From IMG/VR virus record IMGVR_UViG_3300043493_000025, positions 1-39,039 of that record: DNA of 39,039 nucleotides. The stretch is one strand, 5' to 3'. Shown here piece by piece: positions 1 to 38,911 of this stretch. A model generated the notes under the pieces. That model had not been told where the DNA came from. It did not search any database and worked only from the letters and a program-made list of their open reading frames with translations. Within the stretch, counting starts at the first letter, position 1, and every line of letters begins with the position of its first letter. The DNA is from a virus (taxonomy: Duplodnaviria > Caudoviricetes). A program made the translations under genes and the position numbers.

Positions 1-127
1 GTAGTTAGGGAGCGCGCGGCCATCGTGGCCGAGCCCGTGATCGAGATGAAGGGTCCGCCCATACCGGGCATCCGTCCGCGCGAATATCAGTTGCCGGTGT
101 TCAAGTACTGGGAGGGCAACAAGAAGC
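1..127. repeat. Terminal direct repeat (identical to 38913-39039), probably circular assembly overlap
   Basis: 1-127 is identical to 38913-39039; 127 is a typical assembler k-mer; terS-terL are contiguous across the join. Confidence 0.93.
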
Positions 128-1479
128 CCGACCAGCGCGCTGTGGAGTGCTGGGCGCGGCGACTGGGCAAGGACCTGACCTACATGTCGGTCGCAGCATC
201 GAAGGTGCAGTTCGAGCGCAAGGGGCTGTACGTGCATTTCCTGCCCGAGGCCGAGCACGCACGCCGCACCATCTGGGATGGCTTCACCAACGAGGGAGAC
301 CGGCTGATCGACGTGGCCTTCCCGCCTGTGATGCGCTCGAAGACGCTCGACCATGACATGCGTATCGAGTTCAAGGATGGCGGCGCGTGGCAGCTAGGCG
401 GCTCGGATCAGTACGACCGCTGGGTAGGCAGCAACCCCATCGGCATCGTGTACAGCGAGTTCGCGCTGGCGCACCCGAGAGGCTGGGACCTGATGCGCCC
501 GATCCTGAAGATCAACGGTGGCTGGGCCGCGTTCATCTCCACGCCGCGTGGCTATAACCACTTCTTCCAGATCCTGCAGCTAGCCAAGGAGAATCCGGGC
601 TGGCGCTGGTCGCACATCAACGCACTCGAAGCGATGCTCGACGATGGCAACCCCGTGATGACGCAGTTCGACATCGACGAGGAAGTGCGCCAAGGCATGC
701 CCGAGGAACTAGCTAGGCAGGAATACCTGTGCGACTTCAGCGCCGCCAACGTGGGCGCGATCCTCGGGCGACAGGTGGAGCGCGCCGACAAGGATGGCAG
801 GTTGCGAGACGAGGTGTACGACGCAGCAGGCGAGCGCATCGACGTGTCGCTTGACCTTGGATTCCGCGACACGGCGGCTGCGTGGTTCTGGCAACGCTGG
901 CATGACACGCACGGCCTCGTTGACTACGATGAGGACAACGGGCTCGACGCCGAGCAGTGGATACAACGCTTGGCGGACAAACCGTGGCACTACGGCACGA
1001 TCTATCTACCGCACGATGCACGTGCCAAGACCTTCCAGACTCGGCACACGGTACTGGAGCAGTTCGCCGCCGCCATCAAGGATGGACGTTTAAACGCCGA
1101 GCGCGCGGTGCTGGTGCCGATGACCAGCATTTCCGACCGCATCAACGCGGCGCGCACCGTGATGCCGTACTGCCGCTTTGACCGCGTGGCGTGCGCTCAG
1201 GGCCTGCTCACCCTGCGCGAATGGCAGTACAAGTACGACGATGCGCGCAAGACTTACAGCCGCGAGCCCGAGCACAACTGGGCGAGCCACGGCGGCGACG
1301 CCTTCAGCTACGGCGCGCAGATGATGCGCTTCAGCAGCAAGAGCCTAACTACCAAGCGCGTGCAAGGCCCGGTTAACTGGGCCGATGCGCGCGATCCCCG
1401 CCACATCATTCGCCCGACGCTCGCCGACATGTGGGCCGAGCGTGAGCACGAAGCCGAACAAAGGAATCGCATCCCATGA
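25..1479 (+). CDS. terL: Terminase large subunit
   Basis: Walker A-like WARRLGKD, Walker B-like IVYSEFA, FISTPRG coupling motif, nuclease DLGFRD and SHGGDAFSY; lies between terS and portal. Confidence 0.93.
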   Translation: MAEPVIEMKGPPIPGIRPREYQLPVFKYWEGNKKPDQRAVECWARRLGKDLTYMSVAASKVQFERKGLYVHFLPEAEHARRTIWDGFTNEGDRLIDVAFPPVMRSKTLDHDMRIEFKDGGAWQLGGSDQYDRWVGSNPIGIVYSEFALAHPRGWDLMRPILKINGGWAAFISTPRGYNHFFQILQLAKENPGWRWSHINALEAMLDDGNPVMTQFDIDEEVRQGMPEELARQEYLCDFSAANVGAILGRQVERADKDGRLRDEVYDAAGERIDVSLDLGFRDTAAAWFWQRWHDTHGLVDYDEDNGLDAEQWIQRLADKPWHYGTIYLPHDARAKTFQTRHTVLEQFAAAIKDGRLNAERAVLVPMTSISDRINAARTVMPYCRFDRVACAQGLLTLREWQYKYDDARKTYSREPEHNWASHGGDAFSYGAQMMRFSSKSLTTKRVQGPVNWADARDPRHIIRPTLADMWAEREHEAEQRNRIP

Positions 1480-3503
1480 GCGCACTGACGCCGACCCTAA
1501 CTAGCCGCTCCGACTTCGAGAAGACGCCGCAGGGCATCCAGCAGCTATGGATCACCGAGCTAGCGGCGGCCAAGAAGGATCAGGAGAAGTGGCGCAAGGC
1601 GGGCGAGCGCATCACCAAGGTGTTCCTCGATGAGCGCGGCGAGGAACAGAGCGTGATCGACATGCTGCGCTCTGGGACACGTTTAAACGTCTTCAGTGCC
1701 AACATCATCACGCTGCGCGCGCTCTTGTTCGGCAACGTGCCGCGCGTCGATGTCGGCAGGCGCTACCAAGACTCGGACGACGATGATGCGCGCGTTGCGA
1801 GCGAGATCATGGAGCGCAGTCTGAACGCCGACATCGGTGAGCAGTTCAGCTTCGGCATAGGGCAGGCGCTCGATGACAGGTTGTTAGTCGGCTTCGGCTG
1901 CGCTCGCGTGGCGTACGAGGCGGACTTCGAGACCATCCAGCATGAGGCGATCATGTTGGGGGAGCGCGAGGTGGCACCCGCGTTCGAGGAAGAAGTGAAG
2001 CACAACGAGGCCGCCCCTGTTTACTACTACAACTGGCGCGACGTGCTGTGGTCGCCCGCGCGTACGTGGGACGAGGTGCGCTGGATCGCGTTTCGCAACT
2101 ACCTCACCCGCGATGAGTGCAAGGCGCGCTTCGGCGACAAGATAGGCGAGGCCATGCCGCTCGGCACCTCCAAGCGCAAGGCCGCCGATGCGGGCATCCA
2201 GTTCGATCCGTGGCAGAAGTCCGAGGTGTGGGAGGTGTGGGACCGTACCATCAAGAAAGTCATCTGGATGTGCGAGGGCATGGACGTGATCTGCGACATG
2301 AAGCCCAACACGCTCTCGCTCAAGGGCTTCTTCCCGTGCCCCAAGTTCATGCTTGCCAACCCGACCAGCAAAGCCTATCTACCGCGCGCTGACTACATCT
2401 TGGCGCAGGACCAGTACAACGAGTTGAACGACTGCAGCCGCCGCATCACCATGCTGCAGAAGGCGCTCAAAGTCGTCGGTGTGTACGACAAGTCGGCGGA
2501 CGGCATCCAGCGCATGCTCAACGAGGCGACCGAGAACACGCTCATCCCGGTAGATAGCTGGGCGATGTTCGCCGAGAAGGGCGGCATCAAGGGGCAGGTC
2601 GACTGGTTGCCGCTCGATCAGGTGGTGGCGGCGTTGACGGCGCTGCGCGACTACCGCAGCGAGCTTGTGAACCTGCTCTATCAGGTCACGGGTATGAGCG
2701 ACATCCTGCGCGGTGCCACGCAGGCGGGCGAGACCGCGACCGCACAGTCGATCAAGGCCAAGTTTGCAAGCGTGCGCGTGCAGGCACAGCAGGACGAGTT
2801 CGCGCGCTTCGCGACCGATCTTCAGAAGCTGCGCGCCGAGGTGATGATCCTGCACTTCAGCGACGAGGCGCTGGTCAAGCAGGCCAACATGGAGTTCACG
2901 CCTGACCAGCAGCATGTGCCCGGAGCGCTCAAACTACTGCGCGAGAAGGATGTGTTCCGCATCGCCATCAAGTCCGAGCAGTTAGCCATGCAGGACATGG
3001 CGGCATTGCGGCAGGAGAAGACCGAGTTCGTTCAAGGGCTGTCGGGCTTCATCACTGCCGCCGCGCCGCTGGTGCAGGCGCATCCGGCCGCAGCCCCGAC
3101 GTTGCTCGAACTACTCAAGTGGGCGATGTCCGGCTTCAAGGGCGCGTCGACCGCCGAGTCGATCTTGGACTCTGCCATCGCATCGCTGCAGCAGAACCCG
3201 CCGCAGCAGCCGCCAGATCCGGCCAAGCAGAAGGCCGATGAGCAGCAGGCCAAGACGCAAGCCGGGATGCAGGTCGAGAAGATGAAGCAGCAGGGCAAGC
3301 AGGTGGAGATTGGTGCCAACTTGCAGGCCGACCTAACAAGGGTGCAGGCCGAGACCGGCGCGGAACTGCAGAAGCAAAAGGCGCAGTTCATCTTCGACAC
3401 GCACGCCGCCAATCGCGACGCCATCAACCAGTCGCAGGAAGCGCAGCGCACCGAGGGGGTGGCTGCGACCACGGCAGTCACATCCAAGAGGCCATCGCAA
3501 TGA
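1476..3503 (+). CDS. Portal protein (P22-like podovirus type)
   Basis: 675 aa directly after terL with ATGA overlap; QVTGMSDILRGATQAGETATAQ motif; Gln-rich helical C-terminus. Confidence 0.88.
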   Translation: MSALTPTLTSRSDFEKTPQGIQQLWITELAAAKKDQEKWRKAGERITKVFLDERGEEQSVIDMLRSGTRLNVFSANIITLRALLFGNVPRVDVGRRYQDSDDDDARVASEIMERSLNADIGEQFSFGIGQALDDRLLVGFGCARVAYEADFETIQHEAIMLGEREVAPAFEEEVKHNEAAPVYYYNWRDVLWSPARTWDEVRWIAFRNYLTRDECKARFGDKIGEAMPLGTSKRKAADAGIQFDPWQKSEVWEVWDRTIKKVIWMCEGMDVICDMKPNTLSLKGFFPCPKFMLANPTSKAYLPRADYILAQDQYNELNDCSRRITMLQKALKVVGVYDKSADGIQRMLNEATENTLIPVDSWAMFAEKGGIKGQVDWLPLDQVVAALTALRDYRSELVNLLYQVTGMSDILRGATQAGETATAQSIKAKFASVRVQAQQDEFARFATDLQKLRAEVMILHFSDEALVKQANMEFTPDQQHVPGALKLLREKDVFRIAIKSEQLAMQDMAALRQEKTEFVQGLSGFITAAAPLVQAHPAAAPTLLELLKWAMSGFKGASTAESILDSAIASLQQNPPQQPPDPAKQKADEQQAKTQAGMQVEKMKQQGKQVEIGANLQADLTRVQAETGAELQKQKAQFIFDTHAANRDAINQSQEAQRTEGVAATTAVTSKRPSQ

Positions 3504-3655
3504 TCGAGGTGCGCCAGCAAGTAGGTGGGCCGGTGGTATTCATCGGTGGCTGGGCCGTGGTGTTGCTGCCGTTCGTGATGCTCTACGCCAAGCTGTCGAG
3601 GGGCGCAGGTCTCGTCTGGTGTTGCTGGAAGCGCCGCGTCGAGGTGCGACTATGA
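3500..3655 (+). CDS. Small putative membrane protein (51 aa, not in ORF track)
   Basis: MIEVRQQVGGPVVFIGGWAVVLLPFVMLYAKL...; ATGA overlaps with both neighbours; one hydrophobic segment. Confidence 0.55.
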   Translation: MIEVRQQVGGPVVFIGGWAVVLLPFVMLYAKLSRGAGLVWCCWKRRVEVRL

Positions 3656-3978
3656 GGCGCACATGGCACTTCGATGAGAAGTTAGGCCGACTGGTCGAAG
3701 GTCCTGCCCCGCGCAAGGGGCACTCGGGTGACGGATGGATGTACTCCGACCGGCTGTACTCGGCGACGCCATTCCTTGGCAAGGACGGCAAGGTGATCGA
3801 CTCGCGCAAGAAGCACCGGCAGTACATGGCGCGCAACGGCCTAACTACTATGGACGACTTCAAGCAAACATGGGCTGACGCGGCCAAGCAGCGCGCCAAG
3901 CATTTCACGGACGGCTCGAACGACCGCAGCGCGCGGCGCGAGGCTATCGAGCGCACCATTCTCAAGCTGGAGAAATGA
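3652..3978 (+). CDS. Conserved-looking phage hypothetical protein
   Basis: ATG 3652 after GAGG; DGKVIDSRKKHRQYMARNGL motif seen in small post-portal proteins. Confidence 0.7.
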   Translation: MRRTWHFDEKLGRLVEGPAPRKGHSGDGWMYSDRLYSATPFLGKDGKVIDSRKKHRQYMARNGLTTMDDFKQTWADAAKQRAKHFTDGSNDRSARREAIERTILKLEK

Positions 3979-3979
3979 C

Positions 3980-6900
3980 ATGGGCAACCGCAGCACGTTC
4001 GTCCTGAATGCGCCTGACGAGATGCAGTCGCCGCAGCCCACGGGCGACCGCAACCTCTGGCTGACTGACAACGAGCGCAAGCGCCGCGCGCTGCGCCGCC
4101 AGTCGACCGACGCGGCCGAGTCGCTCGGCAATGATCTTGCGAGCGGCCAGCAGTTCATAGGCGACTTGGGGCGCAATGCGCTGGGCCTGCCCGAGGCTGC
4201 CATGACGGTCGGCACGGGGCTTGTCTCGCAGCTTGGCACGGGGCTCGGCACCGCTGCGGGCATGGTCGCCGACACGCTGCGCAATGGCATCTCTGGCGGG
4301 GTAGATAGGTCTGGCAATCCGGTGATGCGCGTGCGCCAGCCCGACATCGACTCCGCTGCCGAGACCATCGGCGACAACAGCGAGCGCTTCACCTACCAGC
4401 CCAAGACCGAGGGCGGGCAGGGCGCGCTGCGCGGCGTGGGCGAGGTGATGGCACCGCTCGATGAGGCCATGAAGGAGGGCGGTCAGCGTGTATCGCAGGC
4501 GACCGGCTCACCGCTCGCTGGAGCGCTCACCTACGGCGGGCTGAACTTCTTGGGGCCTGAGCATGGGGCACCGGTCGTCGCCGCGCTCCGGGGCTCCAAG
4601 GCGCTCACGGGGCTCATCGAACGGGCGGGTGCGTCGCGCGGCATCGCGAGCACTGGCCGCAGGGCGCGGCAGTCGGGGGCATGGGTGCCGGGTGACATCG
4701 CTGAGACGCCGGGCGACTTCTCGATGCGCTCGCCCACGGTCGATGCGTTTACACGCCTCAAGCCGCAGGAGCAGGTGAAGCTCCCCGGCAGGCAGTTGAT
4801 GAAGGCGTTGCAGCGCGAGGGTGCGAAGAAGGAGGAACTCACGTGGATGGGCCTCGACAAGGTGCTCGACACGGATGAGCCGCTCGCTGTTGCTGATGTC
4901 AAAAGGCTGGCCGAATCCAATGCGCCCAAGATCGAGCACGTGCAGGCGCGTGCTGGCGAGGATGGCGGCGAACTCGACGACGACAAGGTCCATGAAGCGG
5001 TCAGTGAAGCGGTCAGCAACGACGATGACCTGCGCTACCCGGTGACGTTGCAGCACCGTGCTCCCGGCACGCGCAGGTACGAGACATACGATCAGGCTCC
5101 CGGCAATTTCGATAGCCATGACGAGGCGATGGACTGGCTGGACGAGCACAAGAAGGAACTGGTCGAGCACGAGACTAACTACTATCTTGAAAATATCGGC
5201 GAGCATTTCGACGAGGAACAACTTGCCGAGATGAGCGACGAGCAGAAACAGGAGTGGGCTGAGAGTGCTGCGGAATCCTCTGTCGGGGATCAGTTAGGGG
5301 AGTTCGAGACGGAGAACGATTACGACAGCGGCGCGATCAACGAGGAAGAACTGCGCGACTACCACGAGCAGCGCATCCGTGAGAACCCTGCCGATTATGG
5401 CCTCGAAGGTACTGCCGATGCGCCTGACTACGGCGAATACACGGTCGGGCAGCACGGCCGCGAACCCGAGGCTAACTACACGGTGGCGACCGGCAAGCTC
5501 GCGGGTGAGAGTCGCTTCGGGCGCAACATGGGCGAGCCGTCGTTCTTGGAGCCGCATACGCGTGCTGAGAGGGCAGAAGCCAACGCGCGCAACCCGGATT
5601 TCATCGAGGGCGCGCGCGGCAATCCAGACATGGAAGCTGCGCTCGCGAAGGACTTGCAGGACAGTCAGGCGCAGTTGTCGTTGCTGCCCGAGGAAGCCAA
5701 GTCGAAGGCATACCAGCGCGAGGCGCTGCGCCGGGGGCAGGTGGCCGAGGACCCGAACGCCAGCAAGTACCGCAGCCAGTCGAACCTGTCTCACTACCGT
5801 GACATGGGCAAGAACCAGATGTATTTCACGCGCGAGACGCATCGGCCCGCGCCTGACTGGGGCACGGTGCAGAGGGGCGTTGGTCGTGTTGATGAGACTG
5901 GCTTGGGCACGAATGAAGGCGCGGCGCTGCCCGAGTCGAACGATGATAACCCGCTCGCATTCCTCGAAGAAGCGCAGAGCGACTGGTATCAGAAGGGCCG
6001 CAAGACCGGCTGGGCTGACCCCAAGGGCATCGGTGAGATCGAAAAGCAGAAGGTAGATAGGGAGGCGCAGCTAGGGGCGTTTAAACAGCAGGCCGTGGGA
6101 GAACTCAGCAACCTGTGGACTAACCCGCACGTGGCCGAGGTGATAAAGCACGGCATCGCGGCTGAAGGGAAGGACAGCTATCTAGCCTCAAAGCTCAAGG
6201 AATGGGCAGATCTGCAGCCGGGTGGTGAATTGGTGGGGCAGGTAGAGCCCAGTGAATTACAGGATGCGCGCCTCCGGGCGGGCAGAGCCGTTCTCCGCGA
6301 GATCGGCCCATACGCATACGAAAATCCCCCGGCGCAGCAGTTGATAGAACAAACGGCGCAGGGCTTGAGCCAGATGGAGAACATGTCCTCGATTCCCGGC
6401 ACGGAAGACCTGACGCCGACAGGTCCCATGCGCGAGACCCCGCAGTACACGCAGCTTGCAATGGCCGACGCGCTGCGCCGCGCGGTGCAGGAGGGCAAGC
6501 AGTACTTCGGATGGACACCGCCCGACGTGCACGCGCACCGCTGGGGTACGGAGTCGATGCAGTACGCGCCGAGCGCTGAGAATCCGCGCATGATGCGTGC
6601 ACGCTTCGGCACCCGTCGGCTTGAGCAAGACCCCGGCACGATGCTGGAGAAATTGCAGGGGCGTGCTGATGAGTTGTTAGGCGATGATGTACCGTCGGAG
6701 ATGTTCAACCTCGACGATCCGAATATCGACAAACTACTGCACGAAGCTGTCGAGGCCAATCTTGACTACGGCATGAGTGACTACCCGGACCCCAACGCGC
6801 AGCGCGCCAAGCGTGCGGCGGGCATCAAGAAGGACATGGAGCGCCTCTCGCAGCGCATGACGACGGAAGGACCGCTGCCAGATGAAGGCACCATTCCCCG

Positions 6901-7120
6901 GCGCGCAGCGACGCACAACTCACCGCGCGCCTACGGCTACGAATCGGCTTACGGCCCGATGGAAAAGCACATCATCGACATCTTGCGCAGGAGCGGCGTG
7001 AAGCCCCCGCAGATCCGCGACATCCCGATGCGCGGTGATCGTGGGCAGCCGATGCGCGGATTCGAGATTGATCCCGACTTGGCACGCGCCGCGAAGCGCG
7101 GCTTTATCCTGCCTTACTAA
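3980..7120 (+). CDS. Large protein resembling injected/polyvalent internal virion proteins
   Basis: 1046 aa; Gly/Ala-rich N-terminus with FTYQPKTEGGQ; GAKKEELTWMGL and FLEEAQSDWYQKGR motifs; acidic middle region. The ORF is solid, the function is inferred. Confidence 0.55.
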   Translation: MGNRSTFVLNAPDEMQSPQPTGDRNLWLTDNERKRRALRRQSTDAAESLGNDLASGQQFIGDLGRNALGLPEAAMTVGTGLVSQLGTGLGTAAGMVADTLRNGISGGVDRSGNPVMRVRQPDIDSAAETIGDNSERFTYQPKTEGGQGALRGVGEVMAPLDEAMKEGGQRVSQATGSPLAGALTYGGLNFLGPEHGAPVVAALRGSKALTGLIERAGASRGIASTGRRARQSGAWVPGDIAETPGDFSMRSPTVDAFTRLKPQEQVKLPGRQLMKALQREGAKKEELTWMGLDKVLDTDEPLAVADVKRLAESNAPKIEHVQARAGEDGGELDDDKVHEAVSEAVSNDDDLRYPVTLQHRAPGTRRYETYDQAPGNFDSHDEAMDWLDEHKKELVEHETNYYLENIGEHFDEEQLAEMSDEQKQEWAESAAESSVGDQLGEFETENDYDSGAINEEELRDYHEQRIRENPADYGLEGTADAPDYGEYTVGQHGREPEANYTVATGKLAGESRFGRNMGEPSFLEPHTRAERAEANARNPDFIEGARGNPDMEAALAKDLQDSQAQLSLLPEEAKSKAYQREALRRGQVAEDPNASKYRSQSNLSHYRDMGKNQMYFTRETHRPAPDWGTVQRGVGRVDETGLGTNEGAALPESNDDNPLAFLEEAQSDWYQKGRKTGWADPKGIGEIEKQKVDREAQLGAFKQQAVGELSNLWTNPHVAEVIKHGIAAEGKDSYLASKLKEWADLQPGGELVGQVEPSELQDARLRAGRAVLREIGPYAYENPPAQQLIEQTAQGLSQMENMSSIPGTEDLTPTGPMRETPQYTQLAMADALRRAVQEGKQYFGWTPPDVHAHRWGTESMQYAPSAENPRMMRARFGTRRLEQDPGTMLEKLQGRADELLGDDVPSEMFNLDDPNIDKLLHEAVEANLDYGMSDYPDPNAQRAKRAAGIKKDMERLSQRMTTEGPLPDEGTIPRRAATHNSPRAYGYESAYGPMEKHIIDILRRSGVKPPQIRDIPMRGDRGQPMRGFEIDPDLARAAKRGFILPY

Positions 7121-7135
7121 CTACTAGAGGTTTTT

Positions 7136-8212: not shown

Positions 8213-8334
8213 GAGCACGTGCGTGCCCACTTCTATCGAGACAGCCCCGGCACCGGGACAAGGCCGAAGCGTGTAAACGCTCCACGGGAAACGGTGTAAA
8301 CGCTAGGCTCAATCTCGAATAGTTAGGGGCTAAC

Positions 8335-9306: not shown

Positions 9307-9340
9307 TCAGTAGTCGGGTGGCGTTTTATCGCGCCAATTT

Positions 9341-9373
9341 CGGAGCAGGGCTAACTACCCTGCTCCGTTTTTT
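9341..9373 (+). terminator. Rho-independent terminator after the capsid gene
   Basis: CGGAGCAGGG-ctaacta-CCCTGCTCCG perfect 10 bp stem followed by TTTTTT. Confidence 0.88.
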
Positions 9374-9387
9374 CAAAGGAGTTCGCA

Positions 9388-29153: not shown

Positions 29154-29242
29154 TTGCGCCGCGATCGCAGGATGGCCGTGACGACCAAGAACGAAGTCAC
29201 GAATGGGATCACGAAGACGGTAAGAATTCGTTCGATGGTCAC
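29150..29242 (-). CDS. 30-aa single-TM peptide (not in ORF track)
   Basis: GGAG RBS; GTGA overlap with the pol stop; MTIERILTVFVIPFVTSFLVVTAILRSRRK; ATGA overlap downstream. Confidence 0.55.
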   Translation of the reverse strand: MTIERILTVFVIPFVTSFLVVTAILRSRRK

Positions 29243-31083: not shown

Positions 31084-31095
31084 TTATTCCTCCCA

Positions 31096-31130
31096 GAAAA
31101 AAGCCCCGAATCAGAGCCACGCTCGGGGCC
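31096..31130 (-). terminator. Terminator-like hairpin directly upstream of the polymerase RBS
   Basis: On - strand: GCCCCGA...TCGGGGC followed by TTTTTT, then GGGAGG and ATG. Confidence 0.65.
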
Positions 31131-31187
31131 ACACGTGTTGGTGTCAGGCACGTACTGGACACACGAGCGCCAGCGTGCCGTCTCGCT

Positions 31188-31970
31188 CTAGAATTTCCGG
31201 CCGCGACGCGGGGGTGGGGGAGCCTTCGCGGCCGGAGCTTCATCGAACTCAGGATACGGCATGAGCATCAGGCGCTCGGCCTCGTCGACCCGTGCCGCGA
31301 TGGCATCGAGCAGCGCGTCGCCCTCGAAGACGCTCGCCACGAAGCTGACCGCGTACTGGGTCTTGGGGTCGGGGCGGTTCTCCAAAGTAGTTAGGCGCGA
31401 CCACGTCGGGTCCTCGTCGCCGAAGATGGCCTCGACGTAGGAGCGGAACGTCTTGGCGTTGAGCACCGAGAGCCGCGCCTGCCAGATGGTGGCCGCCGCT
31501 ATCGCGCTCGGCCCCTTGGCGAGCGTGTCGCCGTGGATGAACGCGAGCCGCGAGCCCTCGCGGCACGCCTTGCCCTTGCCGTTGGCGGCCGATCCGAACT
31601 CGGCAAGGCGGCAGGTGCCACAGGTGTCCGATTGCGGCACGGCGGACTTCTCGTGCGGCCTGACGCCATCGTAGCTGTAGCAGTCGGGCGACTCGGTGGC
31701 GTTCGGGTCGAAGGGCTTGCTGTAGTAAGTCCGCTCGAAGCCGTGCGCGAGCAGGATCAGCGGCAGGGGATTGGCGATCTGGTTGCCCCCGGCGCTGATG
31801 GCTCCGCCCCGGAACGAGAGGAAGTTGCCGCCCATCTGCGGCAGCTTCGCCAGAGTCTGGCGGCTGGTGTTGATCGACTGCTTGGCGCGCTCGCGCCACG
31901 ATCCGGGAGTGGCGAGCGTGGTCGGGGCGCGGGGTACAAGAGCTTTGCTGGCTGTCTTTTTGGCTGGCAT
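31188..31970 (-). CDS. Putative ssDNA-binding/annealing protein
   Basis: PDCYSYDG..P...PQSDTCGTC...FGSA..GKGKACR Cys motif; adjacent to the polymerase. Confidence 0.55.
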   Translation of the reverse strand: MPAKKTASKALVPRAPTTLATPGSWRERAKQSINTSRQTLAKLPQMGGNFLSFRGGAISAGGNQIANPLPLILLAHGFERTYYSKPFDPNATESPDCYSYDGVRPHEKSAVPQSDTCGTCRLAEFGSAANGKGKACREGSRLAFIHGDTLAKGPSAIAAATIWQARLSVLNAKTFRSYVEAIFGDEDPTWSRLTTLENRPDPKTQYAVSFVASVFEGDALLDAIAARVDEAERLMLMPYPEFDEAPAAKAPPPPRRGRKF

Positions 31971-32015
31971 GACGGGTTCCTTTGGTACGAGCTACGAGTT
32001 ACGAGCGGCGCGATC

Positions 32016-32276
32016 CTACGCCTTGCTGTTGGCGGCCTCAACTGTGCCGTTTAAACGCTCCGGGTATGACCCCATGTTGATAGTGCCGTCAGTGATCTCG
32101 GTGTAGAGATAGGGCTTCAGGTCGGCGCGGGTTCGCACCGAGGTGTGGCCTAACTTCTTGCCCTCGACCACGCGGCAGACCACGTGCGCCATGCCGGTGT
32201 CGGGGTGCTGCTCGTCGAGCCAGTAGACGCGGCCGTCGGCCTTGTCGGTGTGGAGAATGAGGCTCTGCGTTCTCAC
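32016..32276 (-). CDS. Hypothetical protein
   Basis: GTGA-coupled start at 32276. Confidence 0.6.
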   Translation of the reverse strand: MRTQSLILHTDKADGRVYWLDEQHPDTGMAHVVCRVVEGKKLGHTSVRTRADLKPYLYTEITDGTINMGSYPERLNGTVEAANSKA

Positions 32277-32689
32277 TTCTTGGTCCTCGTGGTGATCGAC
32301 AGTTCCATCTTGGTGCCGGGGCGCACGCCGGGGATCTGCACCTCGTCGTCCCAGCGTTCCTTGCACGCACTAACTACCGGCTGCTTGCGCACGAGGTCCC
32401 ATGCACGGTTCTTGCCGACGAACTCGAAGAACGCCTGATCGTCGAACAACTCGGCGAAGGTGTTGCGGCGGATCGAGATGGTGGCGGTCTTGGTCGAGAC
32501 GCTTTCGAGTTCCGCTTCGAGCATCGAGACCAGCAGCAGTTCCTCGGCATCGTTGCGCGCCTGCTTCAGCGGCTCCAGCTTGGCCTCCATCGCGCGGCGC
32601 TGCTTGTTGTAGGCGGCCTCGGCCTTGTGCAGGCTGTCGGCGAGAGCCGTCAGCGCGCCGGGAGCGTAGGTCTTGGGCTTAGTTTTCAT
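32273..32689 (-). CDS. Coiled-coil replication-cluster protein (Gam/Gp157-like)
   Basis: N-terminal coiled coil, D..AFFEFV, WDLVRK and IPGV motifs. Confidence 0.55.
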   Translation of the reverse strand: MKTKPKTYAPGALTALADSLHKAEAAYNKQRRAMEAKLEPLKQARNDAEELLLVSMLEAELESVSTKTATISIRRNTFAELFDDQAFFEFVGKNRAWDLVRKQPVVSACKERWDDEVQIPGVRPGTKMELSITTRTKK

Positions 32690-32942
32690 CGCATCTCTCC
32701 GTCGGGTGTCTGTTGATAATGTCAGCAGGGTACATGCGCGAGTTGACCAGAGTCAACAGCGCCTTGGCGATGTCGTCGCCCATCACGTTGTTCTTCACCG
32801 TGATGGGCGACACCGCGCCCTTGGCCCGTGCCTGCCAGTACTGAACGATGCGACGTTTACACGTCTCGATGTCGTTCCGCTGGAAGGCGAGCACGCCGTC
32901 AGTCAGGATCTGCTCGGCGGCAGGTTGCTGGATCACGGTCAT
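32679..32942 (-). CDS. Hypothetical protein
   Basis: GGAG RBS and ATGA overlap at 32942. Confidence 0.6.
   Translation of the reverse strand: MTVIQQPAAEQILTDGVLAFQRNDIETCKRRIVQYWQARAKGAVSPITVKNNVMGDDIAKALLTLVNSRMYPADIINRHPTERCDEN
32711..32757 (-). promoter_or_regulatory. Putative internal promoter with two operator-like palindromes
   Basis: TTGACT-18 nt-TACCCT; GTTGACCAGAGTCAAC (32742-32757) and TGTTGATAATGTCAGCA (32711-32727). Confidence 0.5.
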
Positions 32943-33196
32943 GCGTCTCCCTCCAAGGTAGCTAGGGCCAGTTGCACGTACAGCTTGGCAATGCCGGGCG
33001 AGCGCTTCTTCTCGACCGGCCACTTGCGCAGCGCGTGATGTAGATAGACAGCCGCGTCCTTGCCGTTCAGCATCTCGGCGCGGGGTGCAAGTACCTGCCC
33101 TTCGGCCTTGGCCGCTCGCAGCTTGGCGTTGCGTGCGCGGGTGGCGATGCGCTTGGCAATCGTTTCGGCCGATTGCCTGTGCCCCTTGGGAGGCAT
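32939..33196 (-). CDS. Small basic protein with a NUMOD3-like motif
   Basis: MPPKGHRQSAETIAKRIATR resembles the G.kHSeEt+.K+s DNA-binding motif. Confidence 0.55.
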   Translation of the reverse strand: MPPKGHRQSAETIAKRIATRARNAKLRAAKAEGQVLAPRAEMLNGKDAAVYLHHALRKWPVEKKRSPGIAKLYVQLALATLEGDA

Positions 33197-33399
33197 CAGC
33201 GCTTCTTCCCGTCGCCGTCGAACCACTCGACCAGTCGCGCCGAGAACACCTTCAGGCGGCCACGGCGGAAGACGACTTGTGCCGGGCGCTTCTTCTTCCA
33301 GTAGTAGCGTGCGCTCCTGCACGCTTGGCACAGCACGATCTCATCGCGCTGCGTCTCGAACTCGACGCAGCAGTCCTGCGTGTCGCAGATCTTCTTCAT
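33196..33399 (-). CDS. Small Cys-rich basic protein (possible Zn finger)
   Basis: C....C...CQAC pattern followed by a basic tract; coupled both sides. Confidence 0.6.
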   Translation of the reverse strand: MKKICDTQDCCVEFETQRDEIVLCQACRSARYYWKKKRPAQVVFRRGRLKVFSARLVEWFDGDGKKR

Positions 33400-33776
33400 T
33401 CCATCTCTCCCGTCCAAATGAAGGCATTGCCGACGATCAGCATGCCGGTAGCTAGGAGCACCGCGAGCGGCGGCGGTGGCTCCTGTGTCAGGTCGTTGTA
33501 GCGCAGCTTCTCAAGGCGTCCGCGCAGGTAGCGGTTGCCCGCGATGGCAGAGGCGCGGTCGTTAGGTTTCTTGGTCGCGTCGAGCAGCCCTTCCTCGTCG
33601 AAGAACATGTGCGCCACCTTGCCGTCGAGGATGCACGAGAGGTGTTCGACGGTTCGGCACTTGAGCGGGCCGCGCATGTACTCCAAGGTCGGCGAGCCGT
33701 ATTCGAGCTTGCCGTACTCGGTGGACGGCACCTCCTGATAGGTGCCGTCCTGATTCAGCAGATATAACTTGTGCAT
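33396..33776 (-). CDS. DUF3846-like protein
   Basis: MFFDEEGLL...PNDRAS...IVGNAFIW signature. Confidence 0.65.
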   Translation of the reverse strand: MHKLYLLNQDGTYQEVPSTEYGKLEYGSPTLEYMRGPLKCRTVEHLSCILDGKVAHMFFDEEGLLDATKKPNDRASAIAGNRYLRGRLEKLRYNDLTQEPPPPLAVLLATGMLIVGNAFIWTGEME

Positions 33777-33782
33777 GTCTAA

Positions 33783-34007
33783 CTATTCTCCGTGGTTCTG
33801 AAGGATGTCGAGCTTCTTCTCGATGCGGTGCAGGGCGGCGCGGGACTTCTGCCAGCGGTTGAGCGCGCGGGACAGTTCGGCCTCCATCTGGTGATGGCGG
33901 TCGAGCGCCTCGGCGTACTGCTTGCCGGGATCGCGGCGCACCTTGCTAGGTGCCTTCTTGGCGAACTCGGCGTTGCGGCCAGCGGCGGCCCATAGGTCGA
34001 TGTTCAT
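33783..34007 (-). CDS. Hypothetical protein
   Basis: ATGA coupling; basic helical protein. Confidence 0.65.
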   Translation of the reverse strand: MNIDLWAAAGRNAEFAKKAPSKVRRDPGKQYAEALDRHHQMEAELSRALNRWQKSRAALHRIEKKLDILQNHGE

Positions 34008-34318
34008 GAGTTGCCTACCTCGTCGAGCGCGTCGATGGCCTCGGTCAGGTCGTCCTTGAGGGTGGCGATGGCGGTCGCGATCTCGTCGAGCTTGGACGCG
34101 GCGGTGTCTAACTTCTCGATGAACTCGCCCATCTCGGTGCCCTTGTCGCCGTTCTGCGCGCCTTCGCTCATGCCATCGAGCGCTTCCTGCTCCGCGTCGC
34201 GCAGGTCCTCGGCTTCGTCCTTGAGCGCGTCAGCGTCCTTCAAGCCCTCGATCTGCGCGAGCAGCACCTGCGCCTGATTGACGAGGTCGCGGGCTTTCTG
34301 TCGTCTCTGCTTATTCAC
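34004..34318 (-). CDS. Acidic helical hypothetical protein
   Basis: AGGAG RBS with GTG start; MNKQRRQK and EQEALDGMSEG.Q.GDKG motifs. Confidence 0.72.
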   Translation of the reverse strand: MNKQRRQKARDLVNQAQVLLAQIEGLKDADALKDEAEDLRDAEQEALDGMSEGAQNGDKGTEMGEFIEKLDTAASKLDEIATAIATLKDDLTEAIDALDEVGNS

Positions 34319-34363
34319 TTTGGATCTCCTGCCCCGGCACCACGCCGGGGCTTCATGTTGATA

Positions 34364-34392
34364 ATTATACAGATGGGGTTGACGTTGTCAAC
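34364..34392 (-). promoter_or_regulatory. Consensus sigma70 promoter with operator palindrome
   Basis: TTGACA-16 nt-TATAAT; GTTGACGTTGTCAAC at 34378-34392. Confidence 0.8.
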
Positions 34393-34398
34393 GGATGT

Positions 34399-34578
34399 TT
34401 AAACGTGGTCGATCCCCTCACAGGCGGCCAAGAAGCGCACGCGGTCGAAGCGTTGGTTTTCGCGGGCGAACGTGTCGGCCAAGCGACTAGCTACCAGCGC
34501 GAGCGCAATGGGGTCCTTGGTGAAGCTGCGCGCGTCGGCGAAGATCGCCGCGATGGCGATGTAATGCTTGCGGCTCAT
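34399..34578 (-). CDS. Small early protein (59 aa, not in ORF track)
   Basis: MSRKHYIAIA...LADTFARENQRFDRVRFLAAC; ATGA coupled; its stop lies in a GTTTAAAC site. Confidence 0.7.
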   Translation of the reverse strand: MSRKHYIAIAAIFADARSFTKDPIALALVASRLADTFARENQRFDRVRFLAACEGIDHV

Positions 34579-34805
34579 CGGCGCACCTTGCCGTCGTACA
34601 GGCGGGCTTCGAGTTCGTAGCCCTCGGTGTCGATGGCGACGCGCGTCGAGGGCTTGAGGCCCTGCTCGCGCTGCTCGGTCATCACCAGCATGGTCTGGTA
34701 GTCGTTGCCCTCGGGGATGCGGTAGGCGTAGCGCGTGCGGAAGCGGAAGGCTTGCAGGTCGCGCAGCATCTGGCGTTCTTCGTGGTTCAGTGATTCGTAG
34801 TCCAT
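34575..34805 (-). CDS. Hypothetical early protein
   Basis: GAGGA RBS; operon tiling. Confidence 0.65.
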   Translation of the reverse strand: MDYESLNHEERQMLRDLQAFRFRTRYAYRIPEGNDYQTMLVMTEQREQGLKPSTRVAIDTEGYELEARLYDGKVRR

Positions 34806-34812
34806 ATAATCC

Positions 34813-34917
34813 TCAGTAGTTAGAGTCGTTGTCCAAGTCGGCGCGCTCGGCAGCGGCGGCCTCGTCGGCCGCCATCTCGTCTGCCGAATCGAAAGGGATC
34901 TCGTCGAAGTCGTACAT
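34813..34917 (-). CDS. 34-aa very acidic peptide (not in ORF track)
   Basis: MYDFDEIPFDSADEMAADEAAAAERADLDNDSNY; exactly fills the gap between two genes. Confidence 0.55.
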   Translation of the reverse strand: MYDFDEIPFDSADEMAADEAAAAERADLDNDSNY

Positions 34918-34919
34918 AG

Positions 34920-35267
34920 TTAGGCGCTCTGGGGGAACTGCTGCGAGAGGAACGCGATGCTCTGCTCAAGGCTCTCGATCTGCTCGTCGATGGCCTCGAC
35001 CGTGCGCTGCGGGACGCCGCGCGTGCCGCCGCCGTTCTGCACCCACTTGCCGATGCGATACGCCTCGCCGTGAGTGGCGAGTACCGTCGCCTGCTGCACG
35101 CCACAGGCGCGCGGGTTCTTGTAGCCGGGCATGTTGAAGGCGATCCACAGCGGGCCGACCTTGACCACGTAGCCCGTGGCGGTCTGCTTGAGCGCGGTCA
35201 GGTCCATGATCTGCGCGCGGAAGTCGGCGAGGGTCTTGGCGATCAGTTCTTGTTGGTCGGTGGTCAT
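34920..35267 (-). CDS. Hypothetical early protein
   Basis: GGAG RBS before ATG 35267 (MTTDQQELIAK); first gene after the leftward promoter. Confidence 0.7.
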   Translation of the reverse strand: MTTDQQELIAKTLADFRAQIMDLTALKQTATGYVVKVGPLWIAFNMPGYKNPRACGVQQATVLATHGEAYRIGKWVQNGGGTRGVPQRTVEAIDEQIESLEQSIAFLSQQFPQSA

Positions 35268-35301
35268 CTTGCGTCTCCAGTTCAGTGATTCGATGGAGTG
35301 C

Positions 35302-35404
35302 ACTCTACAGGCTCTGTTGACGATGTCAACGGATATTTGCATCCCCTGATTATTGTTTAAACGCGCGATACCTGTTGACATCGTCAAAGGGGCAGTGTTT
35401 AAAT
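35302..35404. promoter_or_regulatory. Divergent early promoters with paired operators
   Basis: - strand TTGACA-16-TAGAGT with TGTTGACGATGTCAAC (35315-35330); + strand TTGACA (35375)-18-TTAAAT with TGTTGACATCGTCAAA; GTTTAAAC (35355) lies between them. Confidence 0.72.
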
Positions 35405-35449
35405 GCACGCATCGAAAGGCGTGGTGCCTTTCATCAACGGAGTCTGGCA

Positions 35450-36025
35450 ATGAAAGCAATCAAGAGTCGCGAGGAATGGCTGAACGTGGTGCTGCACAAG
35501 CACATCGCCAAGCTGCTCAAGGTGAAGGCCGGTGTGGTGCTGCCTGCCGACGCCAAGGTGTCGGTCGGCTTCCCCGGTGGCGGCTCGGCGCGCAAGCGCA
35601 TCGGTGAGTGCTGGCCGCGCAGCCGCTCGTCGATCAAGGTCAACGAAATTTTCATCAACCCGTCGATCACCGCACCGACGCTGATGATCGACGTGCTGGT
35701 GCACGAAGCCATCCACGCGGTCGACGACTGCAAGAACGGCCACAAGGCCCCGTTCCGCCGCATGGCGCTCGCGGTCGGCCTTGAGGGCAAGATGAAATCG
35801 ACGCACGCAGGGGCTGAGTTGTCGAAGTGGATAGGCGAGGTACTCGCCGCGATGCCGAAGATCGACTACGGCTCGCTCGACCTGTCAGGCCGCAAGGTGC
35901 AGTCGACGCGCATGCTGAAGCTGAAATGCGACTCGTGCGGCTACGTGGTGCGTACCACGCAGAAGTGGGCCGAGTGCGGCATGCCCTCATGCTGCTGCGG
36001 CGGCGACTTCCACAAGGCGGGCTGA
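35450..36025 (+). CDS. SprT-like zinc metalloprotease with C-terminal Zn ribbon
   Basis: VLVHEAIHA (HExxH) then GHKAPF; CDSCGY..RTTQKW...G.P.CCCG. Confidence 0.8.
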   Translation: MKAIKSREEWLNVVLHKHIAKLLKVKAGVVLPADAKVSVGFPGGGSARKRIGECWPRSRSSIKVNEIFINPSITAPTLMIDVLVHEAIHAVDDCKNGHKAPFRRMALAVGLEGKMKSTHAGAELSKWIGEVLAAMPKIDYGSLDLSGRKVQSTRMLKLKCDSCGYVVRTTQKWAECGMPSCCCGGDFHKAG

Positions 36026-36156
36026 TGGAAGTGCTCGACGCCATCATCAACAAGGGGGCCGCGTTCTACGCGGCCCATCCTCTCATCAGTGCGCTGCTCG
36101 TTTATTGCGTGCTGGATGAATTCGCCGACTGGATGAACAAGAGGCCGCGCAAATGA
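36025..36156 (+). CDS. Small hydrophobic protein (43 aa)
   Basis: TGATG and ATGA coupling; MEVLDAIINKGAAFYAAHPLISALLVYCVL. Confidence 0.55.
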   Translation: MEVLDAIINKGAAFYAAHPLISALLVYCVLDEFADWMNKRPRK

Positions 36157-36353
36157 AGTTCCGCATCGTGCGTTTAAACGAGCAGACCCTCGATGTCGGC
36201 AGCTACGTGCTGGTGTGTGCGCGCCATGTTGCTAATGGCAACGTGCCCCGCTTCCCGGCGCAGCTTGAGGTCTCCGAGGATGGTGTCATCTGGCAGGCGG
36301 TGCCCTTCGTCAACGCCAGTCTCGTCGACGACGAGGATGAGACGCCCAAATAA
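36153..36353 (+). CDS. Hypothetical protein
   Basis: ATGA coupling; followed by a hairpin. Confidence 0.6.
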   Translation: MKFRIVRLNEQTLDVGSYVLVCARHVANGNVPRFPAQLEVSEDGVIWQAVPFVNASLVDDEDETPK

Positions 36354-36384
36354 AAACGGCGGGGCACAGATGTGTCCCGCCGTT
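36352..36384. terminator. GC-rich hairpin, possible terminator
   Basis: AACGGCGGGGCAC-AGAT-GTGTCCCGCCGTT; the T-run is on the - strand. Confidence 0.5.
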
Positions 36385-36511
36385 AACCACTGGGAGTCAG
36401 CGCTGGCAAAAGCGCACGCTTGTTCAGGGCGCGGCGCAAGAGTACCGTAGACCTGTTCTCCGTTGCAAGTACCAACGCGACGGGATGTTTAAACACCACT
36501 TGGAGCTACCG

Positions 36512-38434
36512 ATGTCTGCAGATCCTGCGCAGTTCGCCCTGCCATTCTCGCACTACGCGCGCCTTGGCTATCTACCTGTGCCGCTGCATGGCAAGGTGCC
36601 GTATTCAGTCGGTTGGCAAACTACCCGCTACGAGCAGACCGAACTCGACGTGCTCGACACTCAAGGCAATCTTAACGTCGGGCTCCTGTGCGAGAACATC
36701 GTCGGTCTCGACATCGACCTGACTGATGAGAGCCACGCGCGGAAAATCGAGGCGCTGATCCGGCGCACGTTGAAGCTACCGAAAGCGACGCCGCGCCGCG
36801 TCGGCAACGCACCCAAGGCGCTGCTCATCATGCGCGTGGAGACGCCGCTGCCCGGCTTCGACATTCGGCACGACAGGAAGGTCGTGCTGTTCCAGTTGCT
36901 GGGGGCTGGCAAGCAGTTCGTGGTGCATGGCATTCACCCCGACACCGGCAAGCCCTACACCCTGAACCGGCCCCTGCCACGGGTCGAGAAGCTGCCCCTC
37001 CTGACGGCTGCCGGGCTCGTGGCGCTACGCGAGGCGCTGACCCTTGGCCTGACCAAGCTGGGTTACTCGGTCGGCTCCCACGGCCCCTCCGTCGGCCGTA
37101 TAGGGGGTGGCTGGAGCGCCGCACGGTGGACGCCGACGGGGCAGCAACAAGCGGTCGATGCGCTGTGCCTGCTCGACCCTGACATGGCCCGTGCCGACTG
37201 GATCGAGTGCGGCATGGCGCTCGCCGATGGCACGCACGGCGACGATGACGGCTTCGCGCTCTGGGATACATGGTCGAGCACCTCGCCCAAGTACAACGCG
37301 CGCGAGATGCAGAAGCAGTGGAGATCGTTTAAACCCGGCGGCATCACTCGTGCGTCGCTGTTCAAGAACCAGTGGCTCAAGCGCGTACCAGTAGTTAGTA
37401 CGCCGCCCGTGCGCCATGACGACGATAGTGACGAGCGGCTCGCCGATCTGCTCGCACTCACGCCCGGAGCCGTGCCGTGGCTGGTGCAGGACATGCTGAC
37501 TCACGGCGCGCACCTGCTGGTCGGCCGTCCCAAGGGGGGCAAGTCGTGGGCCACGATGGACTTGGCCTATGCGGTAGCGAATGCGGGCAAGTTCGTGGGC
37601 AAGCAGGCACGCGCGGGCCGCGTGCTGTGGTTCGCGTCCGAGGATACACGCGAGGGACTAGCTAGGCGCTTGAAGGTACGTAACGAAGCAGTCGGTGACA
37701 ACGTCGTGGTGCTCGCGATGGAGAAGCTGCAGGCCGAGCGCGAGCAGTGGGATGACTGCACGTTCTGGGAGATGCTCGATGCGCGGCTCGAAGCCGATCA
37801 CTTCGATCTGGTGATCGTGGATACACAGAAGACCTGCGAGGCGGTATGGGCCAGCGAGCAGATAGACGAGCGGCGCAGCGCCAGCCCGGTCGATGTGGCC
37901 TACCAGAGCGTGCGGCTGTACGACGAGATCGGGCAGCGGCGCAAGACCTGTCTCGTGCTGGTGCATCACACCGGCAAGCTGAAGAACAACAAGGGCACGG
38001 ACTACCACGAGCGCATCAACATGCCAGCCACCGTGGTCGCAGGCGTGACGGGTTCGCTGGTGCTGGCTGATCCACCGGAGCGTGACCTGCACGCAGATGA
38101 TGACTTCCAGCGCATCCTAGCTATTCGTGGGCGGCACATGGCTCAAGGGGATGAGCAGTTGATGGTCGAGATCAAGATGGGCCGCTTGGAGTTGTTAGGC
38201 AAGTACAACGAGGTGGTGCAGACCCGTGCTCAGGCCGAGGTGTTCGCGGCTATCGAAGCATTGCTGCGCGATCAGGAGTCGACGAGCATTGCGCAAGTGG
38301 CCGAACACATGGGCAAGCACAAGAACTCGGTGCAGCGAGCGCTTGCGCGGGCGGCGAAGATGCCGGGCGGCATGGTGTGGAAGGGCAGACGGCTCGATGT
38401 GCGGTCGGGGCGGGGCATTCGGTGGCTGACGTAG
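36512..38434 (+). CDS. Primase-polymerase + PriCT-2 + RecA/AAA-type helicase fusion
   Basis: GYLPVPLHGKVP, VGLDID and GIHPDTGKPY (Prim-Pol); WIECGMAL, WDTWS..SPKY and WRSFK (PriCT-2); GRPKGGKS, VIVDT and LVHHTGK (helicase); GGAG before ATG 36512. Confidence 0.88.
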   Translation: MSADPAQFALPFSHYARLGYLPVPLHGKVPYSVGWQTTRYEQTELDVLDTQGNLNVGLLCENIVGLDIDLTDESHARKIEALIRRTLKLPKATPRRVGNAPKALLIMRVETPLPGFDIRHDRKVVLFQLLGAGKQFVVHGIHPDTGKPYTLNRPLPRVEKLPLLTAAGLVALREALTLGLTKLGYSVGSHGPSVGRIGGGWSAARWTPTGQQQAVDALCLLDPDMARADWIECGMALADGTHGDDDGFALWDTWSSTSPKYNAREMQKQWRSFKPGGITRASLFKNQWLKRVPVVSTPPVRHDDDSDERLADLLALTPGAVPWLVQDMLTHGAHLLVGRPKGGKSWATMDLAYAVANAGKFVGKQARAGRVLWFASEDTREGLARRLKVRNEAVGDNVVVLAMEKLQAEREQWDDCTFWEMLDARLEADHFDLVIVDTQKTCEAVWASEQIDERRSASPVDVAYQSVRLYDEIGQRRKTCLVLVHHTGKLKNNKGTDYHERINMPATVVAGVTGSLVLADPPERDLHADDDFQRILAIRGRHMAQGDEQLMVEIKMGRLELLGKYNEVVQTRAQAEVFAAIEALLRDQESTSIAQVAEHMGKHKNSVQRALARAAKMPGGMVWKGRRLDVRSGRGIRWLT

Positions 38435-38575
38435 GGGTGTGTGTTATGTGTGTTAATGGTCGGTGGGGGTCGCTGGAAAGCCCTATATAATACCTATTTA
38501 TACCTATTAACACCCATGTACATATATGTTCGCGCGCGCGAGGCATTAACACACGTGGGGTGGTGTTAATGCGGG
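38435..38575. other. AT-rich repeat region, candidate replication origin or packaging/late control site
   Basis: GTGTTAAT/ATTAACAC at 38450, 38506, 38545 and 38563; TACCTATT twice (38491, 38501); lies between primase-helicase and terS. Confidence 0.5.
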
Positions 38576-38617
38576 GGCAGGTGTATCAGGAGGCGCGGCT
38601 GGGAGGCTTAATCGCAA

Positions 38618-38911
38618 GTGACTGACGAGCCAGTGAAACGCGGGCGGGGTAGGCCCATCGGCACGTTTGCCGTGCAGACGCAGCGTGCGCGCGAGCGCAT
38701 TCGAGTAGCTAGGCTGGTGCAGATTGCCGACGACATCGCGACCGGGAAGTTAGGCGGTGATCCCAAGCGGCTCGCGGTCAAGCTGCAGGCCATCACGCTG
38801 CTGCTCAGGAAGACGCTGCCGGACCTCACCGCCACTGACCTAACTACCTCGGGGCAGCCACTGGCGGTGACGCAGGTGCTGTTCAACCATGACCCGCCGA
38901 AAGCCAAGTAA
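38618..38911 (+). CDS. terS: Terminase small subunit (putative)
   Basis: Directly upstream of terL across the join; KRGRGRP, RERIRVARLV..., LLRKTLPDL and DLTTSGQPL motifs. Confidence 0.7.
   Translation: MTDEPVKRGRGRPIGTFAVQTQRARERIRVARLVQIADDIATGKLGGDPKRLAVKLQAITLLLRKTLPDLTATDLTTSGQPLAVTQVLFNHDPPKAK

Follow-up and report, generated by a model that had tools for sequence, protein, structure and literature searches.

A densely repeated, selected TAGNTAG word in one clade of podovirus-like phages, probably read in double-stranded DNA

The DNA treated here is the whole of the IMG/VR virus record IMGVR_UViG_3300043493_000025 (39,039 nucleotides; hereafter the window), which is the entire assembly of a podovirus-like phage of the Caudoviricetes, and its subject is the short word TAGNTAG, with its complement CTANCTA, which is written into genes and gene junctions alike. 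The contig is taken as circular because the end of the window repeats its first 127 nt. Coding DNA makes up 97% of the window, and 52 genes were called by a self-trained codon model followed by comparison with relatives; their products include terminase, portal, major head and tail proteins, a family A DNA polymerase, a helicase, an exonuclease, a VRR-NUC-type endonuclease and a primase-helicase of the Prim-Pol type. No integrase match was obtained in the window open reading frames (ORFs) scanned, no endolysin was recognised among the window genes, and the ORF sets that were scanned with PHROGs, Pfam and NCBIfam gave no methyltransferase-like gene. The positions of the features are collected in Table 1, with the close relative G001 and the outgroup G003, described below, for comparison.

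Table 1. Features of the window and their positions.
Feature	Position	Strand	Remarks
Whole assembly, podovirus-like phage	window		circular contig, 38,912 bp, 64% G+C
TAGNTAG/CTANCTA grid	2..38846	.	91 sites without the terminal duplicate; 86 separate loci; mean gap 452 bp
Second grid, palindrome GTTTAAAC	1088..37334	.	18 copies, plus 5 of GTGTAAAC/GTTTACAC; separate from the TAGNTAG grid
TTGAC-N3-GTCAA palindromes	25497, 34379 (34379..34391), 35317, 35375	.	four in the window; six in G001
98-aa clade-restricted protein	26035..26331	-	80% identical in G001; just 5 other close homologues
Cro-like protein	26328-26600		phrog_35, E 0.001
67-aa C4 zinc-finger protein with basic helix	33196..33399	-	82% identical in G001; not found at the syntenic place in G003
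Largest TAGNTAG-free gap	34917..36568	.	1651 bp; spans the divergent early promoters and the SprT-like gene
SprT-like metalloprotease with C-terminal zinc ribbon	35450..36025	+	Pfam SprT-like E 7e-5, below the curated cutoff; phrog_6361
Prim-Pol/PriCT-2/AAA_25 primase-helicase	36512..38434	+	Prim-Pol E 2.8e-6, PriCT_2 E 2.6e-19; weak C-terminal helix-turn-helix (HTH) match; rival candidate reader
AT-rich block with repeated GTGTTAAT-type words	38435..38600	.	behind the primase gene
127-nt copy of the window start	38913..39039	+	assembly overlap; contains match no. 92 of TAGNTAG

First of all, 92 matches were found in the window (43 TAGNTAG and 49 CTANCTA on the + strand), against 8.7 expected from base composition. 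The central base is T in 41, A in 30, C in 16 and G in 5 of the matches; the optimum word is TAGTTAG, with a weak preference for RG before it. The first-pass annotation, made from the letters alone, had put the perfect copies at about 88, their spacing at about 450 bp and the chance expectation at about 8; the spacing and the expectation were reproduced, and the count was of the right order, though slightly low (92, or 91 without the duplicate). The codon-preserving shuffle that it had proposed as a check places the genes far above expectation: 76 sites were observed in genes against 3.7 in 500 synonymous-codon shuffles, divided into 23 in the TAG sense against 0.29 (maximum 4) and 53 in the CTA sense against 3.4 (maximum 9); most of the larger genes carry the word. 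The motif holds 35 of the 74 CTA codons of the genome; the annotation had described it as built from codons otherwise rare here. The change of the CTA:TAG ratio between the arms, formerly given as 36:21 and 7:16, was recounted as 38:23 in the + arm and 7:16 in the - arm, and it arises from coding, because TAGNTAG fits one sense frame only; over comparable frames the synonymous opportunities are filled equally in the two senses (23/98 and 21/97).

Gene junctions and stop codons hold 15 of the 91 sites, all of them TAGTTAG, in orientations of 10 and 5, and the density at junctions (~8.7 per kb) stands against 2.0 per kb in genes. As 10 of the 52 genes end inside a site, and as a TAGNTAG on the coding strand gives stops in both other frames, the word could be conceived as a by-product of translation, that is, of off-frame stops, codon bias or peptide repeats. 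This is scarcely credible. TAGNTAA occurs once, TAANTAA twice and TGANTGA 12 times against 91 for TAGNTAG, and since the other stop pairs are unenriched, hidden stops are excluded; variants of the word that are not stops are enriched, the shuffles that preserve codons yield only the 3.7 sites already given, and the tripeptides compatible with the motif show hardly any excess. The stop-codon, codon-bias and peptide explanations were therefore rejected.

Second, the word is confined to one clade. A close relative, G001, is a genome of 39.5 kb, 78% identical to the window over aligned DNA, and has 103 sites; L115, a locus of 14.6 kb and a second independent close relative, has 42. Taken as a pair, these two relatives are ~80% identical in DNA. 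A further locus, L001, agrees with G001 at 7981 of 7983 positions and is essentially the same phage, so that three independent genomes carry the grid. Among 220 related loci of at least 5 kb, CTANCTA is the top enriched word solely in the window, G001, L001 and L115, and no copies were found in G003 (27.9 kb, with 56% aligned amino-acid identity to the window), L002, G414, L154 or G412. The comparison with related phages suggested by the annotation thus yields the same density in the close relatives and zero in the nearest outgroups, and the grid probably arose on one branch. A scan for the paired word in 3 of the 64 parts of the viral collection gave 121 loci, none with a genome-wide excess by simple ratio, shuffle tests having been run on 4 of them.

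The sites are also conserved. Where window sites could be aligned to G001, the six fixed bases are intact at 51 of 68, whereas the corresponding share is 34% for 7-mers in general and 55% for those TAG triplets that lie outside the motif; at the synonymous level, as the annotation had wished to see in orthologues, 39 of 57 codon-aligned sites are preserved against an identity of 63% at four-fold sites. Lost sites tend to be replaced nearby: a site present in G001 only lies within 30 nt of 4 of the 17 window-only loci against 0.75 expected (P 0.006), although short shifts of this kind may be alignment slippage, and the comparison of the window with L115 was not significant. Overlapping double sites (CTAGCTAG) number 3, 4 and 3 per genome and are conserved.

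Sites with one mismatch are graded. Summed over the window, G001 and L115, TTGTTAG occurs 42 times against 1.5, CAGTTAG 26 against 3.6, AAGTTAG 20 against 3.6 and TAGTTTG 17 against 1.9, whereas the transition variant TGGTTAG reaches merely 8 against 3.6; the excess of one-mismatch copies that had been noticed at first sight is thus real for some types of variant and fails for others. All the enriched forms but one have a central T. When 28 one-mismatch sites were compared with their aligned counterparts in G001, 17 proved unchanged and 1 perfect, and sites of this kind keep their distance from perfect ones (P 0.02, 0.007). Since the commonest variant is a transversion while TGGTTAG is little raised, these are weaker sites and not decayed ones. 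That is to say, the ranking looks like a binding matrix, and would suit neither decay nor an all-or-none enzyme site.

Third, the sites are spaced more evenly than chance allows. The coefficient of variation (CV) of the pooled gaps is 0.72 and 0.70 against 0.98 for random placement (P 0.0005; 0/20,000), and the evenness holds against draws from the synonymously possible places (P 0.002, 0.0007). It consists of too few pairs closer than ~200 bp, a deficit absent at 400-800 bp, and no periodicity was found from 5 to 300 bp. At 8-100 bp the window and G001 together have 12 same-strand pairs against 21 and 5 opposite-strand pairs against 21, the latter class being depleted more than any other in the window (1 vs 9.3); below 200 bp the opposite-strand pairs number 10 against 19 (P 0.012) and 14 against 24 (P 0.015). 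When one strand is slid relative to the other, the evenness is abolished (P 0.014, 0.010). Since a signal read on a single strand, such as priming or Chi, predicts the opposite spacing, a reader of duplex DNA is favoured, and for such a reader the spacing constitutes moderate evidence.

This bears directly on the phage's own primase, which has Prim-Pol, PriCT-2 and AAA_25 domains and whose template recognition site the word could be, priming occurring on either strand every 0.8-1 kb. The per-strand density of one site per 794-973 bp falls in the range of Okazaki fragments, and the + strand alone becomes evenly spaced when near-cognate sites are added (P 0.04, 0.015). However, with this exception for the weak sites, spacing at the scale of such fragments is not seen within a strand: the per-strand CV is not below that of random relabelling (P 0.28, 0.94), the maximum gaps of 3.2-5.2 kb are no smaller than random, and the avoidance works below 200 bp and between strands. 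In the published account of the phage NrS-1 (PMC8718748), a word of 7-8 nt and an AEP primase likewise stand in one genome, and the primase-polymerase recognises 8 nt; yet that site is single-stranded and strand-specific, which the spacing of TAGNTAG is not, and a short GTG is described there as the more efficient site. The primase of L154 is 48% identical and its locus has zero copies of the word, and further primase relatives for a test of co-variation were not found. Priming is therefore a decidedly unlikely function.

Sites also stand back from the early promoters. Their mean distance from the promoter palindromes is 348 against 172 bp (P 0.03) and 336 against 150 bp (P 0.006), in a post hoc test on 3 and 5 collapsed sites; two of the palindromes (34379 and 35317) lie across the -35 box of a sigma-70-like promoter, and G001 has its own largest gap, of 1701 bp, in the region orthologous to that of the window. 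Both the cross-strand avoidance and the distance from early promoters are observed with modest power. An origin by molecular drive, or a nick or resolution site, would mean that a nuclease or recombination step of the phage favours the word without any stable lattice. Drive can build graded and spaced words, as uptake sequences exemplify in the passages cited (PMC1939737), and the strong depletion of opposite-strand pairs at 8-100 bp looks as if close opposite nicks were harmful; but overlapping double sites exist and are conserved, and avoidance of promoters is not predicted, so this origin is held to be very unlikely.

Fourth, none of the 614 bacterial genomes sampled, which belong to four phyla, has the word at more than a low frequency. 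GTAGWTAGG, with 16 copies in the window (~410 per Mb), stays at or below ~12 per Mb in each of the 401 genomes from Dyella's phylum, where it generally falls short of the reversed control, and related longer patterns are likewise scarce in the 121, 51 and 41 genomes around the deltaproteobacterial, Thermoguttaceae and Nitrospiraceae records, the samples of 51 and 41 being weaker tests with a longer, rarer pattern. CGTTTAAACG is unenriched in 301 genomes of Dyella's class. The tallies for Dyella's phylum and class include the unpublished rows G393, G450, G549 and G696, on which alone no claim is based. As for the search of candidate hosts recommended at the outset, rarity was established for the sampled genomes, which may not include the host. 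In genes, restriction-type sites are avoided (CCWGG 0 vs 167, SAGCTS 0 vs 67, CGATCG 0 vs 27), and 24 of the 64 six-base palindromes are absent from the window; much of this profile recurs in outgroups that have no TAGNTAG (CCWGG 0 in G003, G412 and L002), which suggests similar hosts and exposed DNA. SAGCTS was discarded as a clue to the host, its published link being an uninformative Beggiatoa methylase. When the portal was aligned to GTDB, 12 loci were obtained, mostly contigs of metagenome-assembled genomes (MAGs) at 30-45% identity, although a single one, from an archaeal MAG, reached 66%.

These results have to be set against the idea that a host protein (a nucleoid organiser, a repair or end-processing enzyme, or a defence sensor) reads the word and that the clade has adapted to it, as other phages have to Chi and RecBCD. 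A switch of host would account for the restriction to one clade, the search for a phage reader came up empty, and in PMC12315714 Chi enrichment is documented in the Rec-less lambdoid phages LLS and MD8, which lack a recombination module and in whose genomes selection has likewise raised the frequency of a short word. On the other hand, the word is rare in every bacterial genome sampled, outgroups with a similar avoidance profile have zero copies, and the phage supplies an exonuclease, a helicase and a VRR-NUC-type endonuclease of its own. According to the same paper, Chi is abundant in the host, polar (20 of 23 in one orientation in LLS) and clustered at the ends, with one per 1.86 kb in LLS; TAGNTAG is uniform and ~4 times denser, its two orientations (43 and 49) are both enriched in both arms, and it is rare in the bacteria sampled. 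A host reader is accordingly judged unlikely.

Other known systems resemble the grid in part. The highly iterated, methylation-linked palindrome HIP1 of cyanobacteria (GCGATCGC; PMC5861425) is also short, many-fold over-represented and conserved in and between genes, and has no gene-level function, a structural role being proposed. It differs in being a palindrome of cellular chromosomes, with a periodicity of 10-90 kb; TAGNTAG shares the over-representation and the conservation beyond codon effects, but is a non-palindromic direct repeat of a phage clade that avoids distances below 200 bp and in which no periodicity was found. DNA uptake sequences and uptake signal sequences (DUS/USS; PMC1939737) are likewise dispersed self-marks, often genic, read irrespective of orientation, with graded mismatches and a spacing reported to be even, but they are described as read by competence machinery and abundant in the cell's own chromosome, and no such genome was among those sampled. 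The stoperators of Cluster A mycobacteriophages (PMC9283540) are asymmetric, numerous across the genome, favoured at junctions and read by a phage-encoded protein; as that account has it, they are 13 bp long, ~20-30 in number, oriented with transcription and present at promoters, in temperate phages. TAGNTAG has 7 bp and 91 sites, of which 76 are coding and not in promoters or short intergenic spaces; it occurs in genes in both senses (23 and 53) at equal occupancy, stays off promoters, and belongs to a phage with no integrase detected. In summary, the grid most resembles a dispersed mark of the uptake-sequence or HIP1 type, or a stoperator array, and it departs from each of these, as from Chi, in features that were tested. 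In the literature searched, in which subscription journals were thinly covered, no description was found of TAGNTAG, its IUPAC forms or GTTTAAAC as enriched in phages.

A second grid, overlooked in the first reading of the sequence, is formed by GTTTAAAC, which accounts for 18 of the 19 TTTAAA of the genome, occurs 13 times in genes against 0.08 in synonymous shuffles, and has copies 17-38 bp from the early promoter palindromes. In G001, GTTTAAAC is absent and CTTTAAAG is present 15 times instead. From sequence comparison, the SprT-like protein is likely to be the predicted reader of this grid. In distinct phages, tails that belong to the TRM(L/I)K type go together with GTKTAAAC: in the window (23), UtzChips (23), Tweety19 (27), phage 4A (14) and L222-L226 (3-5 per locus), while in G001 the zinc-ribbon tail is changed and reads TYLIK, and the word has switched to CTTTAAAG. 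G411 has a different tail, yet 19 copies of GTTTAAAC, and G412 is a counter-example, with GTKTAAAC 21 + 12 times in genes (33) and no SprT match detected. The observation of the second grid also takes in L399-L401. A small phage protein may thus plausibly own a genome-wide word; the SprT-like protein itself has no link to TAGNTAG, and the second grid leaves that word unexplained.

Two observations stand beside the second grid. In G001, which has 0 GTKTAAAC, a GIY-YIG-like protein (16374-16811, - strand; L089) with a weak match to LEM-3 GIY-YIG (E 0.04) is fused to an ancestral SprT-type zinc-ribbon tail, and it is possibly aimed at the mark of rival phages. The putative small terminase of the window (38618-38911) has an AT-hook-like N-terminus, of which 27 residues are identical in the window and L115; in G001, 5 of 6 consecutive residues there are changed, and this N-terminus varies widely among other carriers of GTKTAAAC.

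For TAGNTAG, two small proteins are leads. Several small genes are present in the window and G001 and were not found in the other fetched loci, and among them the zinc-finger gene is the best conserved; no outgroup contig covers the entire early region, so that absence of a gene from the outgroups is not proven. Besides the two leads, the clade-specific ORFs include 32679-32942, 32939-33196, 33396-33776 and 38618-38911. The zinc-finger family has 41 representatives, in which four cysteines are invariant and a basic helix is present, and the model of the window protein has a predicted local distance difference test (pLDDT) of 96; as a candidate reader this protein is a lead only. The 98-aa clade-restricted protein may be a second one. 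Other candidates were set aside: the HTH of the primase, whose origin repeats change between relatives; the DUF6011 protein (24600-25436), which has near-identical repeats in G003, where TAGNTAG is missing; the Cro-like protein, which has palindromes of its own and probably reads TTGAC-N3-GTCAA; a protein of 1046 aa, whose C-terminal parts are swapped among carriers; and the large terminase and portal, which show no G001-specific change at invariant columns.

Taken together, enrichment, conservation, graded mismatches, confinement to one clade and rarity in the sampled bacteria make the feature solid, and a reader of duplex DNA is probable. The fuller claim, that TAGNTAG is a selected self-mark bound by a clade-specific and probably phage-encoded duplex-DNA reader, is given about an even chance. 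In it, a phage protein would read the word in double-stranded DNA and so mark the genome as the phage's own. Each bound site may act over ~100-200 bp; with such a reach, little would be gained from a second site close by, and one on an early promoter would be harmful. The purpose, which is the weakest step, would be the discrimination of self from non-self in the infected cell, tagged DNA receiving protection or processing and untagged DNA of the host or of rivals being handled differently. The second word, which covaries with a small phage protein, offers a precedent for a phage-encoded reader. Among the four options of the first-pass annotation, the best match is a binding lattice or a self-mark; less apt are priming sites and a Chi-like host signal, since there is no limit to the gaps within a strand, the strands repel one another's sites and the word is rare in the bacteria sampled. 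As regards a modification target, the option that is left, the scans already mentioned gave no methyltransferase-like gene. Its description of a density-selected DNA signal independent of orientation is borne out by codon shuffles, conservation, local replacement and cross-strand spacing.

Several points weigh against the claim of a phage-encoded self-mark. For the zinc-finger protein and the product of 25513-26034, nothing significant was returned by Atlas, Foldseek, Pfam or PDB, and the wider zinc-finger homologues are protein sequences without DNA context. Restriction-type sites are fully avoided, so that any protection does not extend to enzymes of that type, and a general coat is doubtful. 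In the spacing, the perfect sites of L115 are without cross-strand avoidance (13 vs 10.3, P 0.87), lineage-specific sites give a marginal result for opposite strands (4.5 vs 9.2, P ~0.05) and 8.5 against 9.2 for the same strand, and the evenness of the + strand with near-cognate sites and the post hoc nature of the promoter test count on the same side. Most close replacement pairs retain their orientation, several possibly through slippage, and most sites are common to the carriers, so that the P values are not independent. The grid is known from the three genomes named, a slight excess (21 vs 10) also occurs in G411, a distant phage, and the 614 bacteria exclude Acidobacteriota, Actinomycetota, Chloroflexota and others, among which the host may lie.

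A broader proposal, tentative and rather doubtful, is a sequence-based identity system without base modification, in which grids of host-rare words, each with a small phage reader, would be used in conflict. G001 would then have switched its second word together with its SprT tail, and its GIY-YIG-like protein would target the purged word that rivals keep; TAGNTAG would be a denser and newer layer, and the whole a sequence-only counterpart of restriction-modification. Apart from these grids, enriched words of their own were seen in L041, L198, L130, L053 and L270 (BUCT555): AACAGCC (17 vs 2), CTCGAGC, CGGATCC and CCAAAC/ATTTGG.

As to the remaining features of the genome, the AT-rich block is a putative replication origin, and its repeats differ in each relative, even in relatives with TAGNTAG in common. 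The 1046-aa gene (3980-7120), between the portal region and the scaffold, shares its N-terminus with G001 and L115, in which the swapped C-terminal parts match DUF7178 weakly; it looks like a variable cassette for an injected protein. A 507-aa protein of the tail region (22820-24343) has 56 homologues and is without a family, phage or plasmid match. By capsid, the nearest cultured phages are Stenotrophomonas phage BUCT555 (69%) and the Myxococcus phages Mx8 and Mx9 (60%). At least half of the sampled words were present in 4 sequencing runs, one of which may be the source, the other three being labelled freshwater sediment, mine and sediment; runs with a small share of words were excluded from inference on habitat. 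Contigs from runs, aligned to positions 1-19900 of the window, gave some 475 differences.

The carriers form a small set of phages from soil and sediment, none of them in culture, and selection on a DNA word has been so strong that rare codons were forced into 76 places of a 39-kb genome, at a density exceeding that of Chi-rich phages. The presence of two grids in a single genome, the second of them switching with a protein tail, amounts to a natural experiment on specificity. With the word, the ranking of its mismatches, the rule of its spacing and a short list of clade-specific candidates, the question becomes directly testable, and it bears on how a phage with apparently unmodified DNA distinguishes its own genome from that of its host or its rivals.

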